54,105 nucleotides of DNA from NCBI GenBank assembly GCA_050123235.1, contig JASFHL010000008.1:1-54105 (forward strand). Reading direction: 5' to 3'. This stretch comes from Candidatus Woesebacteria bacterium (GTDB lineage: Bacteria > Patescibacteriota > Microgenomatia > UBA1400 > PJMF01). The notes under the pieces were generated by a model. It was not told the origin of the DNA, made no database searches, and saw only the letters and a list, made by a program, of their open reading frames with translations. Shown in pieces: positions 1 through 47,967 of the stretch (positions are counted from its first letter, which is position 1; each line of letters opens with the position of its first letter). Both the position numbers and the translations under genes were made by a program.

Positions 1-396
1 AACAATCTTATTAGCTTCGTTTGGTCTTTGAGGAAAAGGAAGATTGGTATTGGTAGCGGCTTGGCTTGCACTTTGATCTGTTTGAGCCATAGTTTGACTT
101 TGTCCTTTAATAAAAGCAATTTGCCCAGTCTGAGCTTGTTTAACTGCCTCTTGTTCAGTGCTTTGTTGTTGGGTTTTATCAGTACTAAGCAAAGTTGTTT
201 CTGGGATAGGGATGTTTGTGGCTACTTGGCTAGTATCTACGGCTTTTTGATCTATCTGCGTTGATCCTTGTCCAGTTTGAGTAGTTGTTATTGCCCCTTT
301 GGGTTTCATTCTAATAATAATAGAAGCACCTCCGTCTTCCATGTCAGCGATATCACTAGAGATGTCAAAAAGGTTTGAAAACTTTCGATTAGCCAT
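1..396 (-). CDS. hypothetical protein, N-terminal 132 codons only (C-terminus lies beyond the window start)
   Basis: Absent from the ORF track because it runs off the edge. ATG at 396-394 on the minus strand. The frame is open to nt 1, with no tta/cta/tca triplets in that frame. Translation is MANRKFSNLFDISSDIADMEDGG...LPFPQRPNEANKIV. The last residues repeat the LPPKPTEANKIVG linker/domain junction of the adjacent PrgI-like protein. Confidence 0.6.
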   Translation of the reverse strand, partial: MANRKFSNLFDISSDIADMEDGGASIIIRMKPKGAITTTQTGQGSTQIDQKAVDTSQVATNIPIPETTLLSTDKTQQQSTEQEAVKQAQTGQIAFIKGQSQTMAQTDQSASQAATNTNLPFPQRPNEANKIV

Positions 397-484
397 AAGT
401 TCATCTTACTAGATTTTTGCCAATATAATCAAGATAGGGAAAGATTAATTGATTTTTAAAAAAACAAAAAATTATTTAACTTTT

Positions 485-1567
485 TTAATTTAGGCTTTTA
501 ATAACGATTGGATCTATAATTTTCCCTTTAGCAACTACTTTTTGAGTTGGGAATTGAAGTTGATCTTTTTCAACTTTGATTAAATAATCATCATTCTCTA
601 GAGGAGTTGAAGTGAAGAAATGACCCAAACTATTACTTTTAATTGCTCTGACGATCTCACCTTCAGAATTTTCTATTTCAATAATAGCATCAGCAATAAT
701 TTCATTGTTGGGATTAACTATGGCTCCGACAATTTTATTAGCCTCCGTTGGCTTGGGAGGAAGCGATAAATTGCTTGTTAGATGTTTGTTATTTGTTAGT
801 TGAGTATTTCCTTTATCTGTAGCAACTTTGGCAGCTGCTACTTGATTAGCCAAAGGAGGAAAAATTTGTTTTTCTTGCTTGCTAGGGGATTGAGTTGTTA
901 CTGAGATTGTATTTTGATTTACTGGCTGACTTGTTGTTATTGTGTCTGTTTGATTAGTATAAGCAGTATTGTTGTCAGTGTTATTTATAACAGCTTGATT
1001 CATTTCAGGAGCCTTTAAAGTTCTGACTCTGGTTTTAAGTTGAGGTTTTTGTTTCATCTTTTTTACATTGCTATAGTTAACTTGAACTGTTTGAAATGAA
1101 GCCATAATATTATTTACTTTTTCTTGGTCGGTATCTTCCCAATCTTGAATAGAGCTTTGTTTATTGATCGAGCTAAGATACTCTTTGATTCTTTGTCTTC
1201 TTGCTGGAGTAAGATCAATCACAGCTTCTTGCTCTTTGATGATTTTTTTTCGTTCGTAGAGAAAAGGAGTTGGAACAAAAGCTTCTCTTTTCCAAAAAAA
1301 CTGGGTGGGTTTATATAAAACTTTTAAAAAGGTGGTTAACCAGTGATCCAAAGGTCGTTCTTCAATTGGTAAAAAAGCTAAAGCCAGACCTATTACAAAG
1401 CTAAGTAACATTAAAGGATATTTAATGAAGGGCAGAAGATTGGTGGCATAGAAAATAATTGCGCCAATTACTCCAAGAAAAATTTCAGCAAATTGCTTGA
1501 TCGTCATGCTGCCGATGATGTGAAATCTATAGCCAGTGATGTCTTGTGGAATTGGATGTTCGCGCAT
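485..1567 (-). CDS. PrgI-family (VirB3-like) T4SS membrane protein with an extra C-terminal beta-sandwich-like domain
   Basis: The N-terminus HPIPQDITGYRFHIIGSMTIKQFAEIFLGVIGAIIFY plus a second hydrophobic helix matches the PrgI-family pattern. A Q/T/N-rich linker follows. The C-terminal ~85 aa (KIVGAIVNPNNEIIADAIIEIENSEGEIVRAIKSNSLGHFF...DYLIKV) resembles a carboxypeptidase-regulatory-like fold. Confidence 0.7.
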   Translation of the reverse strand: MREHPIPQDITGYRFHIIGSMTIKQFAEIFLGVIGAIIFYATNLLPFIKYPLMLLSFVIGLALAFLPIEERPLDHWLTTFLKVLYKPTQFFWKREAFVPTPFLYERKKIIKEQEAVIDLTPARRQRIKEYLSSINKQSSIQDWEDTDQEKVNNIMASFQTVQVNYSNVKKMKQKPQLKTRVRTLKAPEMNQAVINNTDNNTAYTNQTDTITTSQPVNQNTISVTTQSPSKQEKQIFPPLANQVAAAKVATDKGNTQLTNNKHLTSNLSLPPKPTEANKIVGAIVNPNNEIIADAIIEIENSEGEIVRAIKSNSLGHFFTSTPLENDDYLIKVEKDQLQFPTQKVVAKGKIIDPIVIKSLN

Positions 1568-1668
1568 TAGATTAATTCCATTTTAACAGTAATCAGGAAG
1601 AATTGACCAGAGGGAGATCTTTTTGAGCTCTGAGCTTGGAGAATATAATTGGTTTTTTAGGCTTGGTT

Positions 1669-2631
1669 TTATTTGGCAGAAGTTTGGACAGCCGGAGTGA
1701 TTAATTCTGCTCTTAATTCATCCCCTTTGTTATTAATCAGAGTACCTTTGAATCGATAAAAAGGATAAGCAATTTTTAACTCATCATCAATCCTATATTC
1801 CAAAGAAACTTGGGTAAGCATTCCTGAAGCAATTTCTTCCAAAGAAAGAGAGCCGTGTCCTTCGTAATAAGCAAAAACAATTGAGGCTTTATTTTGATTA
1901 ATGTTTTCAATTGCTTGGTCAATACTAATAGATTTAGCTTTAGCAGAAATAGTGAGATTAACAAAAAAGGGTTGAAAAGTGAGTTTTTGAATTTGATAGT
2001 TTGAATTTAACATGACTTTAAAGGGAAAATCTTCACTATGAGCATAAAAAACAGGAATACCATTCAATTTATAAGTGAAAGGAATTTCCATGATTTCTGC
2101 ATCTGCCTCACTGCTTTCTTCTAGGTGAAAGCCAGCTTTAAAAAAAGAAATTTCTTTTTCTAAAGCAACTAAGCCTAGATTTGGAAAAAAATTATTAAGT
2201 AAAGTGCTGGCAGTACTAATAGCTTGTTCTTTGTTAAGAGTTTTACCAATGGGGGCTTCTTGATTGCTAACCAGAACATATTGTTGATTGTTTTTTGATA
2301 AAGAATATAAAGATCCTTGCCAAATGTTGTCAGTGCCTTCTAAGAGAGTGAGTGAGAACTGATCAGTTAATTGTTCTTCCACATAACTGGCTGTGGTTTC
2401 TGTATTCTGTGCCTGGGCCAAAGCTAGTTCAGCAGGTACGGCAAGCTGGCTGCGATCACCATTAAAAATAATGTTACTAAGTTTGCTAGTTGAGCCATAT
2501 CGATTGGTGCTAATAAATTCAGTTTCTGGCACTTTTTTATAGCCGGGAGTGAGAATTCTAATAATTACAGAGACGATTGTCACGATCGCTGCAATTACTA
2601 GTAAGTAGATAAACCATTTTGTATTTTTCAT
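1669..2631 (-). CDS. bitopic membrane protein, unknown function (possible VirB8/PrgL-position protein)
   Basis: One N-terminal TM helix (WFIYLLVIAAIVTIVSVIIRIL) followed by a ~285-aa extracytoplasmic part. No motif recognised. The functional guess rests only on its position between the hydrolase and the PrgI-like gene. Confidence 0.6.
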   Translation of the reverse strand: MKNTKWFIYLLVIAAIVTIVSVIIRILTPGYKKVPETEFISTNRYGSTSKLSNIIFNGDRSQLAVPAELALAQAQNTETTASYVEEQLTDQFSLTLLEGTDNIWQGSLYSLSKNNQQYVLVSNQEAPIGKTLNKEQAISTASTLLNNFFPNLGLVALEKEISFFKAGFHLEESSEADAEIMEIPFTYKLNGIPVFYAHSEDFPFKVMLNSNYQIQKLTFQPFFVNLTISAKAKSISIDQAIENINQNKASIVFAYYEGHGSLSLEEIASGMLTQVSLEYRIDDELKIAYPFYRFKGTLINNKGDELRAELITPAVQTSAK

Positions 2632-2651
2632 ATAATTAATATTATTTCTTC

Positions 2652-2817
2652 TTTAAAATATAAATATAGTTAATTATAAAGTCGCTCGCGGCAACGTTTT
2701 TTCTTTTTTTAAATTGCCGGGCTCACTCGGTGAAGCTCGGTAGTATATAAAGTGTCAATCTGAGCCTAGCCAGACCTCGCTTCAACGCTCCATAATTAGC
2801 TATATTTATATTTTAAA
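2652..2817 (+). ncRNA. candidate structured RNA (or ssDNA) element, copy 1 of 3
   Basis: A 26-nt arm at 2652-2677 pairs with 2792-2817: 25 Watson-Crick pairs plus T2670 opposite G2799. Core boxes are TGAAGCTC at 2731-2738 and TCGCTTCAA at 2777-2785, 38 nt apart. The element fills almost the whole 2632-2827 spacer. The strand call rests only on the G-U argument. Confidence 0.55.
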
Positions 2818-2827
2818 AAAAATAATA

Positions 2828-5800
2828 CTAATTAACTTCCCCAAAACAACTCCTTACCACCTCGTTTATATTAATAAATTCCCCATCTGGCATTAGTTTA
2901 GCAAGATCAGATTTTGTAGGGAAGTCGCTGCTTCTTGCCCCAGGATGAGCATAAAATGATCCACCTTTGCCCATTTCAAAGTGTAAGTGTGGCCCAGTTG
3001 ATCTGCCAGTGCTACCAACTCTGCCTATTATTTCACCTTCCATTACCTGTTTACAACCAGTTTCAACTTTTTGACTGAGGTGGGCAAACATAAATAAGCG
3101 ATCTTTGCCATCAATGTTTGTTTTAAGTATCAGGTGCATGCCATAACCATTGGGATCATCTGGTTTTGAACAAAGCTCACCTGCAAAAGGAGCAAAAACA
3201 GGAGTCCCCATAGGAGCAGCAATATCATAAGCGTCAGCTCCATTTCCACTGTCACTGATATGTGAAAAACTTCCAAAAGGTAATTGTTTAACAATTCCTG
3301 AAGTAGGCCAACAGCCCAAGCCTTGAGGGCATTCTCCAATGCAAACAACTTCACCAGTGATAGCGTCATCAGAGCCACTTTCATCTGCATTTTCATAAGC
3401 AAATTCAATGGTAAATTTGTTTCTGACACTAGCATGATTGTAATCTTCATCAAAAATTTCAGTGTAACTTAAGCGCAATTCTTGGCCTGGCTCTAAGACA
3501 GTACTTTGTTCAATATTATTAAAGTCATCAAAACTACGAATTTTATCTTCAATATCAGGGGTTTCTCCAGAATACATTTCTTCGTTGTGGTGGACTCTGA
3601 GCTCATCCTCGATATCAGTGATGGTGATTTTGTAATTTTCTTTTGGTTTGATAACAATGCTGTAACGAGCTTCAAAAGGGAAATTGGGATTTTCACAACG
3701 GTTGTCTTGACAACCTAAGCCTAAATCAACAGTTTTTTCAACAAATAAATACTGTGATTCTTTAAATTCACTAGTCAAAGCTGTTAAAGGGGCAGTATAT
3801 GGCAAATCAACCAAAAAGGCAGATTGAATAGCAAGCATGGTAAAAACAGTGCCCCCTATCATAATACCAACAGTGGTTAATGGTGCTGAAACTCCTACAT
3901 GACTAAAAAAAGCTTTCCAAGTGGCAATTTTTGTTACAGCAGGGGCTTTGAGTATCATTTCGGGAGTCCAAGGAGTTGTGGCTGGGGTAGTCGCTTGGGT
4001 TAAACTGGCTTTTCCAGGAACTTTGCCAACTTTGATGGTGGTGGCAGTTCTAGTGGGAACAGCTCTAGTTTTGGCAGTGGCATGTTTTCCTAGCAATTTG
4101 TGTTGAAGATCCGCTCCTTTATTAGCGCCCATGATAAAGCCAGCAGTAGCTCCAGCTGGTCCACCTGTAATAAATCCGACTGTACCTAAAGCTAATCCTC
4201 CCAAGAAGCCAAGTAAAGTAGTAGCAGCAGCAATGGTTTTAATAATGATTAAAGTAGTGGCTGCCGCAGCGCCAGCAATAATTTTGCCAATTACTTTTTC
4301 TGTTTTTTCAATAACCCTGCCAAGACCTGGAATGCGACTGGCAATTGCTTTAAACTTTACATAAGCTTCACCAGCTCCTGCCGCAACTAAATTTGCTCCA
4401 ACTCTAATGGCTGTTTCTCCGAGTTTTCCATAGGCTTTATCAGCTCCGCTTTTTATAGCAGACTTAGCTTTATTCAAACAGGAATTAGCATTTTGTCCAA
4501 AATTAGAAGCGTCTTGGTTTAGGGCGGCTAGTGCAGTTGGGCTTTCTCCAACGCCGCTATTATTTAAAGTAGTTTGAGTTTGTTCTCCATAAACTGAAAA
4601 GTCAGGATGGATAGTTTCTGCATCTACCTGTACGGCTACTGTTTGTAAATAAAAAACAGTTCTTTCTTGAACAGTCAGTTTTTGCCAGTAGCCTTCAATA
4701 GCAGCACTGCTATTTTCATCTCCAGCGGCTTGTAATTCCGAGTAAGAACTAGCACAGCGTTGTACATAAATAGCAGGGTTATGATTAATTTGGCCGTAAG
4801 CCTGCATCATGGCATCAGTCTGTTTACCAACACGCTCTGCAAATTCATCTGGGCTTGCATCTTCGTCTATTTGAAGGTGATCAATGCCGGCTCGGCCGTC
4901 GATTTTCATCACTCCAGCTCTAAAAATTTTCCAATAATCTTTTAAAAAGGGGACTAATTGACGAATTTGGTCATCTGTTAGTTCTACACCTAGTAAAGAT
5001 TGCAATTTAGATCTGATTTCTTCATTGCTGCCTTTGAGCATGCTGCTTAAAACTCGGGGAGATTGACCACTGAGCACAGCAGCTTCTATTCTGAGCGCAA
5101 TAGTGCGGGCAGTGGCAGCATCGCCAACAATAGCAGTCGCCTGGCTGATAAAGGAGTTGGTATAACTTTGACTGTCAAAACCAGGAAGCTCAGCCAGTCC
5201 TTCAAAAAAATCAGCATTACCATGAGCAAAAGACTTAAGGTGTTCTTCTAGAGTAGTCTCATTTCTAATTTTTTTAGGATCAACCTGAGCATTTCTAATT
5301 AAAGGAATTACTCCTGGGATTTGTAAAAATAGTTCATGCCCCTGTCTGGAAAGTTGATATCTTAAAGTAAGACTGTCTGGATCAGTTAAGTTAGCTAACT
5401 TCATCAATTCTTCTTTGCTTAAACCTAGAATCAAACCATTTATAATCTCAAAGGATCTTTCTCTTAAAGCAGCATAAACAGCTGGATCAAGTTGCTCCTT
5501 GTTAGTGCCTAAATAGGCCAGTGTAGATTCCAAAACCAAATCAGCATAGGCGCTAGTGAGATAGCGGGGATTAAAATAACGCGGGTCGATTAGTCCTGAA
5601 GGTTCTTCTGCGGGTGGTGGTGGGGGAGGAGGAACTGGGACTTCAGCTTCTTTTTCGACTTCTGGCGGCCCTTCCTCAGTTTCTTCTTTCTTTTTTTCTT
5701 TTTTAGCTCTTTTTTCTTCACCCTCTTCGGGTTCCTCTTCCTCTGGCTCTTCCTTTTTTTCAGGGATTTCGCTGATTAAACTTAAGTAAACCTGATAAAG

Positions 5801-6403: not shown

Positions 6404-6682
6404 TCTTATACAAATTGTAAAGGTCAACTGGTTATTCCTAAGGCTTTTAGGGATAAATTAGGGATCAATAAAAATAAAGCTTTAATAATTAACTTGCAGG
6501 GTAATAGTATTTTGATTTCACCAATAGAAGAAGTAATTAGTAAGGCAGATCAAGAATCATCATATTTGGATGTGCTTAAAAAAACACAAGGAACTTGGGG
6601 AAAAGATGATTGGTCTGCTCAAAGAAAAAAAAAGAGACAATTAGAATTAAAAGCTTCTAAAACCAGAAAGAAACAATGGTGA
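6386..6682 (+). CDS. AbrB/MazE/SpoVT-family antitoxin
   Basis: The N-terminal GQLVIPKAFRDKLGI looped-hinge-helix motif is present. It overlaps the downstream PIN gene by 7 nt (ATGGTGA). Confidence 0.8.
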   Translation: MNLLQISYTNCKGQLVIPKAFRDKLGINKNKALIINLQGNSILISPIEEVISKADQESSYLDVLKKTQGTWGKDDWSAQRKKKRQLELKASKTRKKQW

Positions 6683-7065
6683 TTTTTGATACTAATATTA
6701 TTATTGATCACCTCAGAATTTCTGGGAAAAAGAAAAGTTTATTATTACAGTTTGCAGAAAAATCTCCAAAAGAAAGTTTTGCTATATCAATGTTAACGGT
6801 GCAAGAACTCTATGAAGGACAAAGCACTCGTGATAGCGATAAAGAAGCAGCTTTATTAGCCACCATTAGTCCACTTAAGATTCTTACTTATAATTATGAA
6901 ATTGCTAAATTGGCAGGCAAGATTGCTAGAGATTTAAAAAGATCAATTGAACTAGCTGATGCAGCCATTGCGGCTACGGTAATAATGAATAATGCTGAGC
7001 TCTTGACTTTGAATGCGAAAGATTTTAGAGGAATTAAAGGTTTAGAATTGGTGAATAGGAGTTAA
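6676..7065 (+). CDS. vapC: PIN-domain toxin (VapC-like)
   Basis: The N-terminal VIFDTNIIIDHL contains the first acidic residue. Later E and D residues appear in the PIN pattern (QELYEG; LADAAIAATV; LLTLNAKDF). It is translationally coupled to the antitoxin. Confidence 0.85.
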   Translation: MVIFDTNIIIDHLRISGKKKSLLLQFAEKSPKESFAISMLTVQELYEGQSTRDSDKEAALLATISPLKILTYNYEIAKLAGKIARDLKRSIELADAAIAATVIMNNAELLTLNAKDFRGIKGLELVNRS

Positions 7066-10202: not shown

Positions 10203-10355
10203 TAAAAAACTCCTCGTGTTGAGGAGCATGGGGCTTTTCTACTGGATGTTTTAAAATCTTAAACATCAGCCCGATGCTCGTCGGATTCTTCTTTGCTTTT
10301 GGCAAAGAATCATCTCTTGTGTCGGACTGATTTGTTGAGTAAATAGCTATGTTTT

Positions 10356-10534
10356 GCTAATTCTAAAAACTAAATATTAAGATAGACGAGACCTTGAAGC
10401 GAAGCATTAAACCTGTTGTTAGATAGTCAGTGTTGATGCTGAGCTTCAGAAGAGAGCATTGTTTATTAACAAAACAAAAAAATATCGATGCGAACGTGTC
10501 TCGGATAGCTTAATATTTAGTTTTTAGAATTAGC
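10356..10534 (-). ncRNA. candidate structured RNA (or ssDNA) element, copy 2 of 3 (opposite orientation)
   Basis: Perfect 26/26 arms at 10356-10381 and 10509-10534, followed by a further imperfect 11-bp extension. On the plus strand the reverse-complemented boxes read ttgaagcga at 10394-10402 and gagcttca at 10441-10448. They are 38 nt apart. Confidence 0.55.
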
Positions 10535-10819
10535 TTCATAGTTTTTGCTAACAAAAACACCGTTGCGGCACAGTGAAGGATTTTCACCTTCTTCCAAAAG
10601 ATATTTATTTTGTTAAAGTTATGCTTTTACTTAGCGATAACTGTATCGGTTGTAGCATGAAAGTGAGGTGGGGGGCAAGGGGAATAAAAGGCATGAGTTT
10701 ATTTACTGATATTTGGTAGAAAAAAACAATTAAAATTTAATCAAAAGCTTGTTTCGTGATTTTAATTTTTTTAAAACTGGGATAAAAACATAAAAAATTA
10801 CCTAGATTGTTTTTTTTTG

Positions 10820-32649: not shown

Positions 32650-32871
32650 AGGACGGTGGAGTTTGTAGTAATCCAATTCTTACATAGCTTTTTGACCAAT
32701 CATTTCAAGATTAGAGTTCCCGCAAAATAAGGAAGGGATGCGTAAGTACTGCTAATTATATAGCTTGAAAAAGAGTTTGCTTATTGGGCTTGCCATGTTT
32801 TGCTTAAAAAAATGCGACACCTTTAGTAAATTGCACTATACATAAAACGACGTTTTTTGTATAATGCAACT

Positions 32872-34059
32872 ATGAAAAAGCGTCGCATTTGGCCCATTTT
32901 GAAAAAAGAAATTAATACGGACGAAATAATTGTGATTACTGGATCTCGGCAGGTAGGTAAAACAACGACCTTAAAGTGGTTACTCAAACAAATTCCAAGT
33001 AATAACAAGCATTATTTTGATTTAGAAAATTTGCGTGATAAAGAATTATTTGAAGTCAAAGACTATAATTCTCTGATTAACGAGTTTCAAAATATAGGTT
33101 TAAAGCTTGATCAAAAGCTCTATTTAACACTCGATGAAATACAAGCTCTCTCCAATCTGCCAAGTGTTGTTAAATATTTATATGACCATTATCAAATCAA
33201 ATTTTTCCTTACCGGCTCAAGTTCATATTACATAAAAAATAAGTTCAATGAGTCAATGGCTGGGAGAAAGATAAATTACGAGATGCTCCCGTTAAGTTTT
33301 CAAGAATTTTTAGATTTTCAAGGAGTTGATTATTCTTTATATGAGGATCCTTGGGTTATAAAATTTTTAGATCCAACTTTTCAAAAACTCAATACCTATT
33401 ATCGAGAATATATTGAATATGGAGGATTGCCTAAAGTTGTATTAACAAGTAGTGTTGATCGCAAAAAAAAACTCCTAGAGGAAATATTTAGTTCTTATAT
33501 TAGGCTCGATGTTAAGAATCTAGCTGATTTTAAGTCAATCTCAGATTTGCGAAGAGTGATTAATCTTTTAGCTGCGAGAATAGGTAATAAACTAAATGTG
33601 ACAGAAATAGCCAATATTACTGGTTTAAATAGAATTACGATAGCTAATTATATTGAGTTTTTGGAACAGACATATCTAATTAGAACCATTCCAGCCTACT
33701 CAAAATCTATTGATATTAAATCTAGATTACAAAAAAAAGTTTATTTTGTTGATACTGGTATTGCTAATGTCAATGCAGATCTTTCCAGTGGCAGTAAATT
33801 TGAAAATACTGTTTGTCATCAGCTGTTTTTTTGGGATGGAAACTTAAGCTATTTTTCTAATAGAGATGGAGAAATTGATTTTATTTTGGAGAATGAAAAA
33901 GAAAAAGGAGCTTTTGAAGTTAAAGAAACGCCAACACAACGAAATTTTACTGCCTTAAAAAGACGAGCAGAACGACTGGGTATTCAAAATTATAGAATCA
34001 TTGGTAAGGAACGATCAGCTAATTTTTCTGATTTCTTGTGGGGTGGTCAAATTAAGTAA
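32872..34059 (+). CDS. AAA-family ATPase with DUF4143-like C-terminal domain
   Basis: P-loop VITGSRQVGKTT and Walker B LTLDEIQ. The length and C-terminal layout are typical of the AAA_14/DUF4143 family. TATAAT at 32860-32865 lies 6 nt before the ATG at 32872, so the mRNA is probably leaderless. Confidence 0.8.
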   Translation: MKKRRIWPILKKEINTDEIIVITGSRQVGKTTTLKWLLKQIPSNNKHYFDLENLRDKELFEVKDYNSLINEFQNIGLKLDQKLYLTLDEIQALSNLPSVVKYLYDHYQIKFFLTGSSSYYIKNKFNESMAGRKINYEMLPLSFQEFLDFQGVDYSLYEDPWVIKFLDPTFQKLNTYYREYIEYGGLPKVVLTSSVDRKKKLLEEIFSSYIRLDVKNLADFKSISDLRRVINLLAARIGNKLNVTEIANITGLNRITIANYIEFLEQTYLIRTIPAYSKSIDIKSRLQKKVYFVDTGIANVNADLSSGSKFENTVCHQLFFWDGNLSYFSNRDGEIDFILENEKEKGAFEVKETPTQRNFTALKRRAERLGIQNYRIIGKERSANFSDFLWGGQIK

Positions 34060-35561: not shown

Positions 35562-35595
35562 TTGACACAATTGTACAATATTGTACAATTGTGTC
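35562..35595 (+). promoter_or_regulatory. promoter overlapped by a perfect 32-bp palindrome (operator) of the Phd/PIN operon
   Basis: TTGACA at 35562-35567, a 16-nt spacer, then TACAAT at 35584-35589. The palindrome gacacaattgtacaat|attgtacaattgtgtc spans 35564-35595. The ATG is at 35600. Confidence 0.65.
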
Positions 35596-35599
35596 CACT

Positions 35600-35884
35600 A
35601 TGACCGACAATATCTCAATTGATGCTTCTAAAGCAAGAAATAATTTTTTTAATATACTCAATACAGTTTATAAAGATAAGACTGTCTCTTTTACTATAAA
35701 AAAAAGTGGTATTCCAGTTGCTGTGATTAGTAAATATAAGGCTACTGTTAGTAAGAAAACTTTAAATTTTGCTGGAGCATGGAAAGGTATTAAACAAGGT
35801 AAACGTCCTGATAATCTCTTAAAAGAGATTTATGAAGCTAGGAAGGATACTGGCAAAGTAAAACGAAAATTACCTAGTTTTTGA
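35600..35884 (+). CDS. Phd/YefM-family antitoxin
   Basis: ISIDASKARNNFFNILNTVYKDKTVSFTIKKSGIPVAVISKY matches the family. It lies immediately upstream of a PIN toxin. I prefer the ATG at 35600 to the GTG at 35591. Confidence 0.75.
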   Translation: MTDNISIDASKARNNFFNILNTVYKDKTVSFTIKKSGIPVAVISKYKATVSKKTLNFAGAWKGIKQGKRPDNLLKEIYEARKDTGKVKRKLPSF

Positions 35885-35897
35885 AATTAAATAAACT

Positions 35898-36284
35898 ATG
35901 TATCTCTTAGATTCCGACTATTTAATTTATTTCCTCAAGGGAATGCCCAAAGTGGTAGAGCTTGTTAATCAACTAGACGCTGAACTTTATACAAGTGTGG
36001 TTTGCATTGGAGAAGTAAGTGAAGGCCTAGCTACTCCAGCTAATAAGAAGAAATTAAAAATTTTTAATGATTTTGTCAAAACTTTAAAAATTATTGATAT
36101 TGATCAAAAAGTTATACTTGAGTTTGCTAAGATTAGAAGAAAATTACGTAACAGGGGAAAATTAATTGGAGATTTAGATATTTTAATTGCTGCTAGTTGT
36201 ATTGCTTATAATTTAACTTTAGTGACAAACAACAAAAAACATTTTAAAAGAATTAAAGGCTTGAGGATTTTATCAGCTAAATAA
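35898..36284 (+). CDS. vapC: PIN-domain toxin (VapC-like)
   Basis: MYLLDSDYLIYFLKG, EVSEG, GDLDILIAASCIAYNLTLVTNNKKHF: the acidic residues fall in the PIN spacing. Confidence 0.85.
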   Translation: MYLLDSDYLIYFLKGMPKVVELVNQLDAELYTSVVCIGEVSEGLATPANKKKLKIFNDFVKTLKIIDIDQKVILEFAKIRRKLRNRGKLIGDLDILIAASCIAYNLTLVTNNKKHFKRIKGLRILSAK

Positions 36285-36395
36285 TTTTTTTATTTAGTGT
36301 AATTTTGTTTTGCGTCCCATAACATTGCTTTATTTCCTTTTTAGAGATAGAATACATATTGGTTGAGTATAAGGGGTTTGAAGAAATCCTTCATC

Positions 36396-37305
36396 TGGCT
36401 GGCCACCTGGCCTGTCAGGCAAGCTGAGGGCGTTTTGGCGTCCTAAAGTTTGCGCTTAACCAGCTGTTTAACAATTCGCAGCGCGTGGCACGCGCTGCTG
36501 CCTGGCCCAAGAGGAGAAAAGGGCCGGGCAGTATGAAGTTTAGTGACCCGCCTCGCGCGGAGGCGGGAGAGTTTGAAAGAGGAGGTTTGAGATGTATAAG
36601 AATTGGAAATTGGCTTTGGTTATACTCGTTGTCGCAGGTTGTGCATTCACCTGCGGCGACATAGGGGATCTTCCCCAGGAGCAACAGGCCGCTCGGGAAG
36701 CCCTTTTCCAGCGGCCGGAGGAGGGACAAAGAGCGCAGCAGGAGGGCTATGTAGAGAGCTGGAAAATTTGGCTTGAGGAGCTCTTTGGGCCTCTGCTGGC
36801 TGACGGCAGGGGGGAAGGCTTATGGGAGCTCACCAAGGCGATCCTCCTGGCTACAGCGCTGGTCCTGCTCCCTTTAGCCCTCGCTAGAGAGATTGGGGAG
36901 AGGTTTAAGAACCTTTCTTGTAAGACAAAGCTGAAGATTTTCATCTTTAGCTTTGGGGCGCTAGGGGTGGCCCTAGCGCTTTATGTTTTTGTATCGTGGT
37001 TGGAGGTGTGGGGACCCAGCCTGTTTTTCATCTGGCTGGGAACTCTGGCCATCGGCCAGCTTGTTCCTCTCTCCGAGAGGAGAGAGAACTTTTTTTTGGT
37101 GGTGGCCTATTTACCAATGGTAATCCTGATGGATTTGGCCCACACGTTCGTGTGGCCAAAGCCTGAGGATATCGGGGACCTAGAGCATCTCTAGTCCCCG
37201 AGCAAAACTTCAACGCACGTGCCCAGCTCACCCCAACGAAGGGGCCAGGCCCGCGATCGACCTGCCTGTCCAGGCATGGGCACGCGCTGCGAAGTTTTGT
37301 TTTAT
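36396..37305. other. GC-rich compositional island (putative horizontally acquired single-gene cassette)
   Basis: Counted G+C is 39/60 in 36481-36540 and 39/60 in 36781-36840, against 12/60 in the flanking 36241-36300. The boundaries are abrupt. Several GC-rich hairpins are present. Confidence 0.8.
36592..37194 (+). CDS. lipoprotein-like multi-pass membrane protein, unknown function (foreign composition)
   Basis: Canonical SD AGGAGG at 36580-36585, 6 nt before the ATG. Lipobox-like LVVAGC. At least 3 hydrophobic helices follow. Third codon positions are G/C-rich, unlike neighbouring genes. Confidence 0.7.
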   Translation: MYKNWKLALVILVVAGCAFTCGDIGDLPQEQQAAREALFQRPEEGQRAQQEGYVESWKIWLEELFGPLLADGRGEGLWELTKAILLATALVLLPLALAREIGERFKNLSCKTKLKIFIFSFGALGVALALYVFVSWLEVWGPSLFFIWLGTLAIGQLVPLSERRENFFLVVAYLPMVILMDLAHTFVWPKPEDIGDLEHL

Positions 37306-37311
37306 AAACTG
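37202..37311 (+). terminator. long imperfect GC-rich hairpin followed by a T-run (terminator-like / REP-like)
   Basis: gcaaaacttcaacgcacgtgccca (37202-37225) pairs with tgggcacgcgctgcgaagttttgt (37288-37311) at 19 of 24 positions. The sequence ttttgtttt overlaps the 3' end of the right arm and runs past it. The motif ggcacgcgctgc also occurs on the left flank, in the hairpin gcagcgcgt-ggc-acgcgctgc. Confidence 0.5.
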
Positions 37312-37439
37312 AATCTTAAAGTAGTCTCTTGGCTAGTTTTAGCACTTTTGACTATTTTTTTAAGAAAGACATTTAAAAAGAAAAAATTTTAAACTCAGCT
37401 GTGGGTATTCAGTCTAGAAGACAGAACTATTTCAAAACC

Positions 37440-39674
37440 CTATGAAGATCCTTTTTTCCGTGCATATCTTTCTCTGCTAACCTTAATCACTTTTTCTCGA
37501 TTGAGATTGTGACTTTTTGCCAGGGCTAGAGTGTGAGCTGGGAATGGTTTGGAAATAATATCATTGATAGTCAATTTATTAATAATCTGATATCTTCCCA
37601 GAGAAACAAGGTCTTCTTGAGTGTATTGTTCAGCATATTCTTTAGCAAAGACAGCGCTATCATCAGCCCCCATCACAAAACTAATAATGCTACCACAGTT
37701 ACCAAAGATAGCTTTTTGTACTTCTTCTGGAATTTGCGCTACATATTGATTGGCTAGGGTAATATTAAGGCGGTATTTTCTGGCTTCAGATAGGATTTTA
37801 TTAAAAGATTGAGTGGCAAAATTTTGAAACTCATCCACATAAAGGTAGAAATCTTTTCTTTTTTCTTCTGCCATATCGACTCGAGACATGGCTGCTAGTT
37901 GAATTTTGGTAATCAACATCGCACCTAGTAGAGTGGCATTATCCTCGCCTAAACGTCCTTGAGATAGATTAGCTATCAGAATTTTGCCTTGGTTCATGAT
38001 TTCTTCAATTCTAAAAGAGCTAGTCTGAGCATTGACTACATTTCTGACCATTGGTGAAGAAACAAACTGACCAACTTTATTGAGAATAGGAGCAATGGCT
38101 TCTGTTCTTTGTCTATCTGGCATTTGGTTAAACTCATCAACCCAGAAGCTTTTCAAAATAGGGTCATCAAGGGTGCTAACCACTTTTTTGCGATATTTAT
38201 GACTAGTGAGTAATTCCAAAACATTGGATAAGCGCGAATTGTCACTTTTGAGTAAAGTTAATAGCGTGTTGCGCAGAATGTATTCTAGTCTTGGACCCCA
38301 AGAGTAAAAGTAAAGTTTTTGGAAAATAGAAACAATGCCAGAGGCAATCAGTTCACGATGCACAATGTCTTTGCCTTCAAAGAGATTGATTTGCACTGTT
38401 CTTTCTGGATCAGCCGGATTGAAATAAACCACATCGTTGATGCGTCGAGAGGGGATGAAATCAAGTAAGGTTTCTGCCAAATCACCATGCGGGTCAACAA
38501 TGCAGATGCCTTCGTCATTTTTGAGGTCATTGATTGCCATATTTGCCAAAAGAGTAGATTTGCCAGTCCCAGTTTTACCAATTACATAAACATGGCGTCT
38601 TCTATCTGTTTTAAACAAACCATATTTAACTTTAGCATTTTTAAAAACAGTTTCGGCAAAAACATTGGTGTTTTTTTTAAGGGCAGGCTCTGTATTCCTG
38701 GTAATGATCGGTAAATTTTCTGGTGGTTCTCCTAGTAGATTTTTTCCCCAAGAAATATTAGGAATCACAGACAGTTGTTTGTTGGGCAGGTGATAAAGGG
38801 TGGCCAGTTCTTCTAGACTGAGGTGCATAGTACTCGAGCGGAAAAAAGAGCGTTTTTTCATTGTTTGCAAAAAGTTGTTTGGGAAAAGATATGTTTTGTT
38901 GAGGATAATAGTGTTGCTTTCACTCTGGGACATGGAACTGAAAGCAGTGGCAATATTTTCTAAGATTAATTCAGCTCTGTCTGGGCTATCAGCAGAAACA
39001 GCAATCTTAATCCCAACTTTTAAAGCCTGGCTTTTGAGTTTTTTTTCAATTAAGGCTTTTTGAGGATGATGACTAGTTTGGCTGATTTGTTCTGCCAGAT
39101 TATCGACGGCTGTATTTCTTTTTTTAAATTGGCTAATTTTACGCAGCGCAGCTTGTCTCCAGAAATCAAAATCTCGACTAATATTAAATTGGATCACAAC
39201 TTGGTCTCTGGGTTGGCTTTGAGAAAGAGTAGAAAGCAGCGTAACCAGTGGGTCTACATCTTGGAAATCTTGGTATGTTTTGAGAGGGAAGTATTCAGCA
39301 TTCTGTAATTTCAGAGATCCTAGTTTTAAATAGTTTTTTCCATCAAAGTGAGGATCCGAGCTTTCAATAGAATCAATTAAAAAATCCATAGGATCACTAC
39401 TGAGGTCTAGTTCATTGATCAAAATTTCAGGATAGCTGGCAGTTAAGCCAGCCTTGAGGTAATCAACAAGTCTGCTGGGCATATAGCAAAGGAAGAAAAT
39501 AGTTTGGTTTTGAACTACGAACTCAAAGCTAAGTTTTTCATGAATTCCTATCAGGCGATAAAAGATATTATTTTTCAGGTGGGGAATAGTAGCAAAGAGC
39601 TGAACTGCTGTTTCTGGAGTATGTTCAGCATCTCGTCCGGTTCGGAGTTCAAGCAGGCTGTGGTTACTAGGCAT
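37440..39674 (-). CDS. T4SS-type ATPase of the FtsK/HerA/VirB4/VirD4 class with ~350-aa N-terminal domain
   Basis: Walker A VIGKTGTGKSTLL, DPHGDL, and a Walker B-like FYLYVDEFQNFAT. No TM helix is evident at the N-terminus. Confidence 0.8.
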   Translation of the reverse strand: MPSNHSLLELRTGRDAEHTPETAVQLFATIPHLKNNIFYRLIGIHEKLSFEFVVQNQTIFFLCYMPSRLVDYLKAGLTASYPEILINELDLSSDPMDFLIDSIESSDPHFDGKNYLKLGSLKLQNAEYFPLKTYQDFQDVDPLVTLLSTLSQSQPRDQVVIQFNISRDFDFWRQAALRKISQFKKRNTAVDNLAEQISQTSHHPQKALIEKKLKSQALKVGIKIAVSADSPDRAELILENIATAFSSMSQSESNTIILNKTYLFPNNFLQTMKKRSFFRSSTMHLSLEELATLYHLPNKQLSVIPNISWGKNLLGEPPENLPIITRNTEPALKKNTNVFAETVFKNAKVKYGLFKTDRRRHVYVIGKTGTGKSTLLANMAINDLKNDEGICIVDPHGDLAETLLDFIPSRRINDVVYFNPADPERTVQINLFEGKDIVHRELIASGIVSIFQKLYFYSWGPRLEYILRNTLLTLLKSDNSRLSNVLELLTSHKYRKKVVSTLDDPILKSFWVDEFNQMPDRQRTEAIAPILNKVGQFVSSPMVRNVVNAQTSSFRIEEIMNQGKILIANLSQGRLGEDNATLLGAMLITKIQLAAMSRVDMAEEKRKDFYLYVDEFQNFATQSFNKILSEARKYRLNITLANQYVAQIPEEVQKAIFGNCGSIISFVMGADDSAVFAKEYAEQYTQEDLVSLGRYQIINKLTINDIISKPFPAHTLALAKSHNLNREKVIKVSRERYARKKGSS

Positions 39675-39747
39675 AGCTTAGTATAGCATCTGGAGATAGT
39701 GAAATTTAAGACAAGTTGAGGTTCATTCGCATTAACTGTTGTTTTGT

Positions 39748-39907
39748 CACTTACTATTTTTTTAAACTAAGACACAGTCGCGACCACTTAGATGCTAGAT
39801 CATTAATTTACCAAGCGCCTTCTCTGAAGCTCAGTCCTTACTTATATCTCATTTCTATGTTTTTATGACTTCGCTTCAAGGTTCTTAGTTTAAAAAGATA
39901 GTAAGTG
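39748..39907 (+). ncRNA. candidate structured RNA (or ssDNA) element, copy 3 of 3
   Basis: The 25-nt arms 39748-39772 and 39883-39907 form 24 Watson-Crick pairs plus T39758 opposite G39897. Boxes are TGAAGCTC at 39825-39832 and TCGCTTCAA at 39871-39879, 38 nt apart. Confidence 0.55.
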
Positions 39908-40118
39908 TATATAACAACCATTTTTAATTCCTTAATCAACTTGACTTAAATTCCACTATCATTCGTTTTTAAATCGGGTTTTTTTATACTTTTTCAATTT
40001 TACTCACTAATTGCTGTTTTTGATTTAATATTGTGAATAAGTTTTATATTGTCCTCTAGTTTTGTTTAACAATTAAAAATATAGGGTATGCTATTTTTTT
40101 TCAATCTTAAATTATAGG

Positions 40119-40148
40119 TTGACATAAATGCCAATTAGTAGTTATACT
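40119..40148 (+). promoter_or_regulatory. sigma70-like promoter in the 1-kb non-coding region
   Basis: TTGACA at 40119-40124, an 18-nt spacer, then TATACT at 40143-40148. Confidence 0.45.
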
Positions 40149-40471
40149 TCTAGTAAAGTTGTAGAAATATTAGTGTTAAGCAACTTTGAAATTTATTGTA
40201 GAAAAAATAATTCTAAAAAACAAAACCGCCTAAAGTTACAGTCTTAGGCAGAAAGAAAGTAAATTTAGGCGGAGTAACATTGTTACCGCTAAACTTTTGT
40301 TTACAAATAACAATGTAGCTAACATTCGCTTAGCTTAATGTTAAGTCTAAGCATATGATGTAAATAAGTTATCATCCTCTGGAGGAATGGTAAACTAGAT
40401 CTTTTTTATCAAAAAGAATGCTTTGTGCATCAATTTATTCAGAAACACTTTAAAAGCTTAAGTAATTTTTG

Positions 40472-40546
40472 AAAAAGGTGTTAAATAGAAGTTCGGTCGT
40501 AAGGGCAGGCAACCGGACTTCTACTTAATACCTTTTTTTATTTTTC
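40472..40546. terminator. 25-bp hairpin flanked by an A-run and a T-run (bidirectional intrinsic terminator-like)
   Basis: aaaaaggtgttaaatagaagttcgg (40472-40496) pairs with ccggacttctacttaataccttttt (40513-40537). On the plus strand there are 22 Watson-Crick pairs, 2 G-U pairs and 1 A-C mismatch. The sequence ttttatttttc (from 40537) overlaps the last arm base and extends past the arm. Confidence 0.55.
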
Positions 40547-40586
40547 TAAATCTTCCAATTAAACTTGAGATTAAAATCTTATAGCA

Positions 40587-40615
40587 TTGATTTTTTTAAG
40601 GTTATAAGCTATAAT
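40587..40615 (+). promoter_or_regulatory. sigma70-like promoter upstream of the sortase gene
   Basis: TTGATT at 40587-40592, a 17-nt spacer, then TATAAT at 40610-40615. Confidence 0.45.
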
Positions 40616-45600: not shown

Positions 45601-47967
45601 CTAATTAGTCGGTAATTGGTATGGATCTTGCTCTGTTTCTTCTTCTATTAAGTCAATATCTTCAGCCCCTTCCAAAGCTTGATCTGCAGCTTGATTAAGC
45701 ACTTGTTGATTTGGATTCTGGACACTTTGTTCAATTAGAGATGGCATTTGTTCAGAGCCTGCACCTTGTTTTCTACTTTGCTCAGTTTGAGCACTAGCAG
45801 CATCTTGAACCTGTGCTGAATCACTAGCTTCTTTAATTTTTTTGTCAATTGTAGCTAAATCTTTCTGAACTACGCCATAGTCTTCACTGTCTTGGGGTAA
45901 TAAGAGTAAAGCTTGTTCCAAAGCCATTTTAGCTTCTGATAATCTGTTAAGATTTATCAAAGGTAAACTAATTTGATAGTAAGCAATTGGTAAATCTGGT
46001 TTAAGATTAATTGCCTGCTGGTAAAGATTAATAGCTTGATTGTATTGTTCTTGACTCATCAATAGGCTAGCTAATTCAACTCTAAGCAGCGGATTACTTG
46101 GATAAGTTTCAATCGCTCTTAAATAAGAACTGACAGCTAATTGTAAAGCCTCCTCATTGATTGGGGCAATAGCTCGGTAAACCTGAGCTAAAATTAACTG
46201 ATTATTAACATCCATTGGATCTAGAATAGTTGCTGCTTTAGCTTCTCGGACTGCTTGTTGTAGAAGTTGCAACATTTGATTTGTTTCTTGCTCAGTTAGA
46301 TCTGCTTTATTTGACAGAGCAGTGGCAATTTTAAGGTTAGTCAAAGCATATTCTCTTCTGGTTGTATCTAGATAAGGATTTAAGCTGACGGCCTTAGCTT
46401 GCTCTTCATAGGTTTTGACTGCATCATTTTGTAGAAAAGCCTTGTTAGCAAGGTAAAGCTGATGAAAACTTAAGTAGGCTCTAGCAGTAAGGAAGAGTAA
46501 AAAACATAATGCTAATCCTAGCAAGCTATTAACAATTAAAATCATTAAATTATTAATAGAAGGTGTTTTGTCTTGCTGATTTTGCTTTTTAACGGAAACA
46601 GTCATATTCAATGCCTCTAATTCCAGACTTGGAAATTGCTTGCGGAAATTTGCCATCCAGAAAGCTAAGGCAATGGCTTGGATTATCAAAAGCACAGCAT
46701 TAGGAGGAAATAGTAGCTGCATCATAAAAACAGCGGCAATTACCCAAGTTAAGGCTGAATCTTTGCTCGCTATCAGATTTTTTTTGCGGAAAAATTGTAG
46801 CATCAAGAAAATCCAAGCTAAAGTTCCTAATAAACCATGAGTGACTATTAAAGTTAAAGGTAAGTTGGCAGCCCTAGAGAAATTTGTTTGCCAGTATGTT
46901 TTCCCATTAGTCCAAATTGGTCTGAAAATAGTATAGACATTCTGATAAGCATCTGTACCTTGGCCAACTAGAGCGGTTTTTGGTGAGCGCAAGCTATCCA
47001 GCCCCACTGACCAACTAGCAGATAGTGAGGGTAATGTTAGTGGGGTTTGTTTGCCTGGTAATAAAGACCAGCCAAAGATTAACAAACCAGCGATGATAAT
47101 CGGCGCGCTAATAAGGTTGATGCTTGATAAGTATCGCTTTTTTACAACTTGAGCAATGATCGCCACCAAGTTTAGGGCTAAAATTTGAACAGCAGTAAAA
47201 GAGGAGCCGCTGAGGTTAAAAATCAAATTATTAGGCAATTGGAAGCCAGTTATTAAACTAATTAGTTTACTTGGGCCAAAACCTATTAATTGTAATAAAC
47301 CTGATACAGTCAAAATAACTGAGGATAAATTAAAGGTAGTGATAAATTTATCTTCAATATTTTTGTTTTTAATTAAAGATGCCCCTAGAAGAGAAATGAT
47401 GCCAAAGGCTATATAAATTCCTCCCATGCCAAGTAGATTCTCCACAGGATAAGTTTGAGTTAAAAAAGTAGAAGCAGCTGTAGCCAAGCTAAACAGAATC
47501 AGAGGAACAGTGACAGGGGAGAGAATTATCCGCCAGCTTTTTTGTTGCGAAGAGGAAATTAAAAAGAGCAGGCCGAAAATGAGACTGACAAAGAGTGTTA
47601 AAAATAGTTTGCTTTGAAAGATAAAGTTATTAGTAAAAGGAACAACAATAATTGGTAGTAAGAACAGTAGAGTCAATAAGGGCCAACTAGCAAATTTTTG
47701 TAAAATTGACGGACTAGTTTTTTTCTGGGTTATAGAGCTGTGAAAAGTTAGGGTTGGGTCAAGGTCTCTGTTCATAATTTTCTTTTTCTTAAGAGAGACT
47801 GTGATTGCTTGTTTTACAATGCTGTTGAGCGCTGTATCCAGATATACATTCTCTCTTTGGTAAAAAGCAGTATGCCTGCTTTCCCATATCTCTGCAAGAG
47901 TTGATTTGCAGGTTATGGGATTAATATTGTTAATTAATAATCCACCAGTTAAATTCAACATCTTCAC
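45601..47967 (-). CDS. polytopic membrane protein (Wzy/O-antigen-ligase-like) with C-terminal TPR repeats
   Basis: About 12 hydrophobic helices lie in residues 90-500. After a further helix, TPR-like repeats follow (AYYQISLPLINLNRLSEAKMALEQAL etc.). The GTG start at 47967 overlaps the upstream gene by 38 nt. An alternative ATG is at 47775 (MNRDLDPTL). Confidence 0.65.
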   Translation of the reverse strand: MKMLNLTGGLLINNINPITCKSTLAEIWESRHTAFYQRENVYLDTALNSIVKQAITVSLKKKKIMNRDLDPTLTFHSSITQKKTSPSILQKFASWPLLTLLFLLPIIVVPFTNNFIFQSKLFLTLFVSLIFGLLFLISSSQQKSWRIILSPVTVPLILFSLATAASTFLTQTYPVENLLGMGGIYIAFGIISLLGASLIKNKNIEDKFITTFNLSSVILTVSGLLQLIGFGPSKLISLITGFQLPNNLIFNLSGSSFTAVQILALNLVAIIAQVVKKRYLSSINLISAPIIIAGLLIFGWSLLPGKQTPLTLPSLSASWSVGLDSLRSPKTALVGQGTDAYQNVYTIFRPIWTNGKTYWQTNFSRAANLPLTLIVTHGLLGTLAWIFLMLQFFRKKNLIASKDSALTWVIAAVFMMQLLFPPNAVLLIIQAIALAFWMANFRKQFPSLELEALNMTVSVKKQNQQDKTPSINNLMILIVNSLLGLALCFLLFLTARAYLSFHQLYLANKAFLQNDAVKTYEEQAKAVSLNPYLDTTRREYALTNLKIATALSNKADLTEQETNQMLQLLQQAVREAKAATILDPMDVNNQLILAQVYRAIAPINEEALQLAVSSYLRAIETYPSNPLLRVELASLLMSQEQYNQAINLYQQAINLKPDLPIAYYQISLPLINLNRLSEAKMALEQALLLLPQDSEDYGVVQKDLATIDKKIKEASDSAQVQDAASAQTEQSRKQGAGSEQMPSLIEQSVQNPNQQVLNQAADQALEGAEDIDLIEEETEQDPYQLPTN

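Follow-up and report, generated by a model that had tools for sequence, protein, structure and literature searches.

The window, by which we mean the whole stretch of 54,105 nucleotides analysed here, is ordinary chromosome. Its gene order (VanW, solute-binding protein, cytidylyltransferase, AAA_14, RadA, VirD4, sortase, Rho, LysM/M23, Obg) is common to relatives, and its VirD4-like coupling protein has homologues in genomes named Parcubacteria, Pacebacteria or Patescibacteria, the best of them 72% and 70% identical. A Pfam search over the 54-kb window returned no transposase, integrase, recombinase or reverse transcriptase, the window holds neither tRNA nor tmRNA genes, and a homologue search with the giant M23 protein returned that protein only. 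Between the genes lie three non-coding hairpins, which we call c1, c2 and c3 (Table 1) and which, together with a fourth copy in a relative, are the subject of this work.

Several other features of this neighbourhood deserve mention in their own right. PIN-domain toxin genes with adjoining MazE-like antitoxin calls (6676-7065 and 35898-36284 in the window, 64-782 in contig L123 of a relative) are scattered across the type IV secretion-like region and its relatives. In relatives, dnaA comes directly after the type IV secretion-like cluster (PrgI, TraC-like, VirB4-like; L142 from 14372 onward), and the cumulative GC skew of the window rises steadily, which fits a start a few kb from the replication origin. 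A giant ORF on the minus strand (47930-54076; 2048 aa in the window, 2937 aa as called on the contig) includes a domain of the Peptidase_S74 type (endosialidase chaperone), a feature like those of tail fibres, here encoded by a cellular CPR genome. The start of the AAA_14/DUF4143 gene is overlapped by an imperfect palindrome of 81 nt (32810-32890), with 40-nt arms that are 78% complementary, 1 nt between them and the centre ...AAAACG-CGTTTT...

The sequence-only reading had claimed that the three loci share one architecture with two boxes exactly 38 nt apart, and indeed the pattern TGAAGCTC-N38-TCGCTTCAA has three zero-mismatch matches in the window, at 2731-2785(+), 10394-10448(-) and 39825-39879(+), each within a long near-perfect inverted repeat. 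Among the inverted repeats of the window with 105-114 nt between their arms, these three are the longest. If up to three mismatches are allowed, the box pattern is observed 4 times, against a mean of 0.28 in 100 dinucleotide-preserving shuffles, and none of the shuffles (0/100) reaches 4. The pairing counts that had been given for the arms are borne out base by base: 25/26 Watson-Crick pairs plus one T:G in c1, 26/26 in c2, and 24/25 plus one T:G in c3. The ends of the 38-nt insert likewise pair as had been described (the P3 pairs GGT/ACC, AGCAT/ATGCT and AGTC/GACT), and the stretch between the 5' arm and box 1, put earlier at 52-60 nt, measures 53 nt in c1, 60 in c2 and 52 in c3. A T-rich segment, ascribed to every copy, is marked in c1 and c2 and not in c3. 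Folded as RNA, the copies are much stabler than shuffled sequence, with z-scores of -7.6 (c1), -9.7 (c2) and -5.9 (c3). Over the 5' halves of both c1 and c3, independent Logan contigs are identical (100%) to the window, so that an assembly artefact is excluded for the elements. The elements c1, c2 and c3 and the copy in the relative are real, non-coding, long-stem hairpins of about 160-180 bases.

Table 1. The hairpin elements, their enclosing palindromes and the interrupted riboswitch (window coordinates unless a contig is named)
Feature	Position	Strand	Details
Copy c1	2652-2817	+	arms 2652-2677 / 2792-2817; 114-nt core; box 1 2731-2738; box 2 2777-2785
Copy c2	10356-10534	-	arms 10509-10534 / 10356-10381; inner imperfect stem 8/11; box 1 10441-10448; box 2 10394-10402
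Copy c3	39748-39907	+	arms 39748-39772 / 39883-39907; 110-nt core; box 1 39825-39832; box 2 39871-39879
Fourth copy	L123/L124 21969-22142		32-bp arms, one mismatch; 110 nt between arms
c1 extended palindrome	2633-2834	.	outer stem 2633-2645 with 2822-2834: 12/13 Watson-Crick plus one A:C
Whole c2 insert, ~230 nt	10329-10558	-	a single hairpin, long and imperfect; CTATG/CATAG forms an outer stem
c3 extended palindrome	39695-39960	.	outer inverted repeat 39695-39719 with 39936-39960: 23/25
Riboswitch aptamer, 5' part (AdoCbl-II-like)	10559-10602	-	P1 5' strand AUCUUUU, GGUGAAAAUCC loop, GCCGCAACGGU
Riboswitch aptamer, 3' part	10312-10328	-	AGUCCGAC then P1 3' strand AAGAGAU

The two Logan contigs, L128 (window 296-2750) and L187 (window 35566-39847), stop within the apical loops (38 nt) of c1 and c3, 12 and 15 nt past box 1 respectively. 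Such ends at the loops could be due to coverage loss at hairpins or to loop heterogeneity in the population. The other end of L187 falls in a perfect 32-nt palindrome, GACACAATTGTACAATATTGTACAATTGTGTC, at 35564-35595, directly after the stop codon of radA.

The limits first assigned to the three loci hold for the perfect arms, whereas the hairpins extend further. Around every perfect arm block runs a longer palindrome, imperfect and about 200-266 nt in length, and the flanks of the L123 copy are likewise complementary. At each locus the element occupies the whole spacer; thus the 196 nt from the stop of the M23 gene (2828) to the start of the 320-aa gene (2631) are filled entirely by the c1 palindrome. 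The segment between the outer and inner arms of c3 contains TTCGCAT, which resembles the 5' motif of the family, and one may speculate that c3 is a younger copy nested in an older one.

Three layers make up each copy, namely an asymmetric core (105-121 nt), a copy-specific perfect inverted repeat of 25-32 bp, and the enclosing imperfect palindrome. Within the core, conservation is found at the 5' junction, (GAC)ACGTTCGC or AGTCGC, in a pyrimidine run ahead of the inner stem, CTCACTCGG or CTCTCTTC, and at the 3' junction, TTCAA(C)G. As a model, one may draw the core as a three-way junction in which the closing stem meets a 5' hairpin, whose loop is T-rich, and a P2/P3 hairpin; the conserved bases are located in the joining strands, and the 5' hairpin gives no consistent alignment between copies. 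The arms had been described as unrelated in sequence. Five of the arm pairs agree with this (p = 0.13-0.9 in pairwise alignment against shuffles) and the sixth does not, since the inner ~20 nt of the c3 arm resemble the arm of the L123 copy (p = 0.002 against shuffles). When the arm sequences were sought elsewhere as guides or spacers, no match with up to 6 mismatches was found in the available sequence, where the arms are unique.

A search of the relatives' loci for long inverted repeats brought to light one element of the same architecture, in the relative whose VirD4-like protein is 70% identical. This L123 copy carries the core motifs GAC-ACGTTCGC and AATGCTC, both in common with c2, CTCACTCGG, in common with c1, and TTCAACG-GTC. 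In place of the boxes it has an inner stem of ten continuous pairs, GAAAACAAAC/GTTTGTTTTC, in a segment longer by 2 nt. The exact boxes, the TC/TC mismatch and the fixed 38-nt spacing had been regarded as traits of the family; because the L123 copy differs in all of these, they must be considered local to the genome of the window. At the same time the inner stem covaries between the genomes, with G:C and C:G replaced by A:U and A:U.

We aligned the four copies without gaps, anchored by artificial GC anchors. In this alignment 92.9% of cells are paired and 28 of the 35 pairs are changed on both sides; none of 500 shuffles (0/500) reaches this pairing, and slid registers pair to at most 48.6%. 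The double-sided changes confirm that the hairpin is conserved, and independent DNA palindromes would score alike. The same counts would come from any group of inverted repeats that are independent, and hence compensating stems cannot separate an RNA fold from a DNA palindrome. The claim of a conserved fold is thus partly upheld: this is a real multi-copy family whose helices are kept by double-sided changes, and DNA palindromes would account for those counts equally well. In summary, the observation on which the earlier reading was built is confirmed and its interpretation is partly supported.

As known at present, the family consists of four copies in two genomes at non-homologous positions. 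The sequence-only reading had proposed a search with a covariance model; the outcome of looking further is the fourth copy with its compensating inner stem, and no others, for the model R1, run over 206 kb (the window and CPR relatives), retrieved the four known copies only, with the next best match at 15 bits. Neither repeat search nor motif search nor covariance model found further copies in ~330 kb of related loci. The scans of public data used boxes that are specific to the lineage, patterns too narrow for the family, and what they returned has to be read in this light: the exact boxes occur at at least 110 loci of public genome contigs, where the matches listed are all single chance matches without flanking stems, and 12 times, again by chance, in viral contigs; boxes with the additional RG...RCY positions gave 2 chance matches in metagenome contigs, in GC-rich coding DNA; and the 5' motif with the pyrimidine run gave 40 viral matches that are chance or coding. 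By blastn, c2 had no match among plasmids and c3 none among phages.

The elements are absent from the syntenic spacers in L123, L129, L130, L142 and L144, all of which belong to distant relatives (70-72% amino-acid identity for VirD4, ~31% for the gene flanking c2). The spacer between VirD4 and sortase lacks c3 in L129, L123 and L130, and in the window it is ~200-260 nt longer. The genes on either side of c1 have positional counterparts in L142 and L144 that overlap or abut; given the weak homology of these counterparts, this comparison is no more than suggestive. Conversely, the L123 copy adjoins an lgt-like gene at a site where the genes of the window abut and leave no spacer. Each of the four copies is situated 20-150 nt ahead of the start of a gene. 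With respect to its adjacent host gene, c2 is in sense orientation, and the other three (c1, c3 and the L123 copy) are antisense.

Between VirD4 and sortase, moreover, four CPR genomes (L129, L123, L130 and that of the window) share a conserved non-coding region of ~400 nt (about 40119-40600 in the window, plus strand). It has a promoter-like TTGACA-18-TATACT at 40119-40148, contains several conserved hairpins, for example CCGCCTAAAG...TTTAGGCGG and CATTGTTACCGCT...AACAATG, and has a terminal hairpin followed by a T-run. With a fold z-score of -5.8 and no match to Rfam, tRNA or tmRNA, it is a candidate for an unannotated ncRNA.

Copy c2 is located inside an AdoCbl-II-like cobalamin riboswitch. 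The aptamer, directly upstream of c2 and on the same strand, scores 27.1 bits against AdoCbl-II (Rfam RF01689), which is below the gathering score of 36.5 because the c2 insert splits it. The gene downstream of c2 has homologues in four contigs (~31% identity), and in L144 and L142 its homologue is preceded by a contiguous cobalamin riboswitch, with 43.5 bits against AdoCbl-II in L144, above the gathering score, and 42.9 bits against AdoCbl (RF01482) in L142, below the gathering score of 50 for that family. The two halves in the window align with the contiguous form. The relatives have GCCGCAACGGU-CAA-AGUCCGAUC at this place, and in the window GCCGCAACGGU is followed by ~230 nt and then by AGUCCGAC; the insert stands in place of three loop bases (CAA or TAA) of the relatives' hairpin CGG-U-CAA-AGU-CCG. 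Placed on the Rfam consensus of AdoCbl-II, the insertion falls in the terminal loop of the final hairpin, CGG-UAAAAGU-CCG. The strands of the P1 helix, on either side of the insert, can still pair owing to compensatory changes (AUCUUUU/AAGAGAU in the window, UUCUUCA/UGAAGAA in the relatives). Judging from these changes, the interrupted aptamer appears to be still under selection, in which case the insert must fold away in the transcript.

In several CPR genomes an AdoCbl-II-like riboswitch precedes an uncharacterised gene of 570-600 aa that heads the type IV secretion-like cluster (the riboswitch lies at 2696-2761 in L144 and at 2646-2766 in L142), and a conserved CGACGAGCAUCG hairpin is found immediately before the start codon of this riboswitch-led gene.

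On the question of strand we disagree with the sequence-only reading, which had suggested plus as the functional strand for the loci at 2652 and 39748 and minus for that at 10356. The two plus-strand G-U pairs are offset by two A-C pairs, that is, by minus-strand G-U, one in the outer stem of c1 and one in that of c3; read from the opposite strand, the TC/TC mismatch becomes a tandem GA/GA; and minimum free energies show no consistent strand preference. Since these cues cancel, the strand call fails. Scans of the three loci with consensus promoters and terminators found nothing common to them. The statement that the elements match no RNA family, on the other hand, stands: Rfam 15 gave no matches (0) over the window at gathering thresholds, and at E≤10 the three loci gave low-scoring unrelated matches, except for the sub-threshold AdoCbl-II beside c2.

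Several specific identities were considered and rejected. A hammerhead ribozyme would have joining strands that these resemble only loosely (CUGANGA and GAA), the invariant U4 and A15.1 are missing, and there is no Rfam match. There is no reverse transcriptase for a retron msr-msd, the R-box consensus of attC is absent, and the stems are not followed by the T-run of an intrinsic terminator. Small ORFs show no consistent reading frame, and a promoter within the core finds no -35/-10 elements in common on either strand.

What, then, are these elements? In our opinion, which we hold with moderate confidence, they are a small and old family of non-coding foldback insertion elements of one Patescibacteria lineage, resembling the intervening sequences of rRNA. 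What we see are lineage-specific insertions: the copies occupy leaders and intercistronic spacers, face either way, and in one case interrupt the hairpin loop of a riboswitch. Insertion is favoured by four homologous copies at non-homologous positions in two genomes, by the nested palindromes, by elements that fill their spacers, and by the similar arms of c3 and the L123 copy despite different loci and different genomes. Against it, there are no near-identical young copies and no empty sites in close strains among the sequences seen, the Pfam search of the window yielded no transposase, integrase or reverse transcriptase, and neither a target-site duplication nor a terminal repeat consensus for the family was found. 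As the copies are very diverged and close-strain empty sites are lacking, we infer mobility from distant comparisons only. Moreover, conserved internal junction nucleotides combined with variable helices also fit a functional RNA. Such an RNA would belong to a dedicated family of structured ncRNAs, transcribed from one strand, folded into a three-way junction and acting in cis or in trans, perhaps with the closing stem trimmed by RNase III. It would agree with helices that are all maintained by double changes, with joining regions that are conserved among variable helices, with an inner stem that covaries between genomes, with folds far stabler than those of shuffled sequences and with the lack of a matching Rfam family; and c2 must be transcribed, as it is located in a riboswitch leader. 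We nevertheless consider a dedicated RNA rather unlikely, as its copies are non-syntenic in relatives and inconsistently oriented towards the host transcripts, no promoter or terminator in common was found at the three loci, the strand cues cancel, an RNA gene within a riboswitch loop is implausible, stems that are A-T-rich, perfect at 26/26 and almost without G-U are atypical of selection at the RNA level, and decayed outer palindromes surround each copy. It is the non-conserved loci, the presence of both orientations and the interrupted riboswitch that lead us to prefer an insertion element over a dedicated RNA gene.

The near absence of G-U pairs turns attention to DNA-level readings. Almost exclusively Watson-Crick stems fit DNA pairing, as would be expected of a site that folds in single-stranded DNA, be it a priming or single-strand-initiation signal of the sso or oriT kind or a hairpin for an HUH or tyrosine recombinase. 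Integron attC and plasmid ssoA also conserve their structure and vary in sequence, and the copies lie near type IV secretion genes, which would suggest a use in secretion-linked DNA transfer or replication. This proximity, however, is a sampling bias of the study, in which the neighbourhoods sampled were those of type IV secretion genes only. The chromosomal context is syntenic with relatives that have no elements, both strands are occupied, whereas a transferred strand would impose a single orientation, and no relaxase or integrase is found nearby; a single-stranded DNA site, taken together with its proposed use, is thus highly improbable in our judgement. The sharply bounded perfect blocks inside imperfect palindromes could alternatively be recombination sites of an inverton, whose core flips and alters the expression of the downstream gene, the recombination keeping the arms of 25-32 bp identical. 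The position of every copy ahead of a gene start, cores lying in both orientations with respect to the adjacent gene, and neighbours that encode surface or secretion proteins would suit such a switch. Yet the window has no recombinase gene, the cores share no promoter-like element in either orientation, the arms share no recombinase site, c2 sits within a riboswitch, and c1 and c3 have the same orientation in two independent assemblies (in their 5' halves, as far as the contigs reach). We therefore regard an inverton as very unlikely.

If the elements are foldback insertions, it seems reasonable to suppose that an insert would be tolerated as the long stem zips its two ends together and the host RNA or operon keeps working. 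By analogy with the intervening sequences of rRNA, a perfect duplex of at least 25 bp would be a likely substrate of RNase III. The arms would drift in sequence and yet stay complementary, either by selection for closure or through correction between the arms by template switching or gene conversion. The conserved junction motifs could serve as a recognition site for whatever spreads the element.

A bolder version of the foldback hypothesis, and to our mind a distinctly doubtful one, is that we are dealing with a hitherto undescribed class of CPR mobile elements defined by structure: elements that insert in hairpin loops, those of functional RNAs among them (riboswitches, perhaps rRNA), possess a conserved three-way-junction core and are neutralised at the RNA level by RNase III via their own perfect stem. 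The core could then be the substrate of an enzyme or itself a functional RNA. If true, such a class would connect to the unexplained short ORF-less insertions of CPR rRNA genes. A searchable sequence family of hairpin inserts, with one member inside a riboswitch whose closing helix persists, would be a model of how CPR inserts spread and why they are tolerated in functional RNAs and packed operons. There is also a caution here for the discovery of RNA motifs, namely that the "covariation" of perfect long stems may stem from DNA palindromes and on its own is no proof of an RNA fold.

Among known systems, the Correia elements, the Rickettsia palindromic elements and ERIC are bacterial MITEs or palindromic insertion elements. 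Like the present elements these are small, non-coding, A-T-rich, bounded by inverted repeats, able to fold into hairpins and present in multiple copies, and they insert in intergenic or transcribed sequence in both orientations. That our elements are not a MITE had been argued from their differing stems. This argument is weakened by the similar arms of c3 and the L123 copy, the one significant pair; the conclusion agrees with what is found on classical grounds, since no terminal inverted repeats are common to all copies and inspection of the flanks shows no direct repeat beside the perfect arms or the outer palindromes. In contrast to MITEs, terminal repeats here differ from copy to copy, one sees no target-site duplication, the copies are highly diverged with conservation at internal junctions and not at termini, and Pfam shows no cognate transposase in the window.

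The attC sites of integrons, with the consensus RYYYAAC/GTTRRRY, likewise have short conserved pairing boxes on both arms, an unpaired spacer and a variable apical part. Here RYYYAAC/GTTRRRY is absent, the conserved part lies inside long variable stems and not at the outer ends, and neither an integrase nor a cassette array accompanies the elements. Invertons, that is, phase-variable invertible promoters, resemble the elements in that locus-specific inverted repeats flank a short asymmetric segment upstream of surface-related genes; for ours, however, no recombinase is seen, the segment lacks a promoter, and there is no sign of a locus that occurs in both orientations.

The closest parallel, in our view, is with the intervening sequences of rRNA and the insertions in CPR rRNA genes. 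The latter genes are reported to carry many short insertions, without ORFs and not introns, at the tops or bases of stem-loops, some of them at known RNase III intervening-sequence sites (PMC11270868). The present elements differ in their location, a riboswitch loop and intercistronic or leader regions in place of rRNA, and in being a recognisable sequence family with conserved junction motifs. In other respects the likeness is considerable. Both are non-coding inserts of ~100-200 nt that occur sporadically between lineages, and in both an extended stem-loop replaces the hairpin tip of a functional RNA, which among our copies applies to c2 only, with a riboswitch as the host. From their sequence, the elements would offer RNase III the perfect duplex of at least 25 bp that it requires. 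The rRNA inserts are tolerated since a stem closes the insert, as we suppose for the present elements, and inserts of this kind are common in CPR and in reduced genomes generally.
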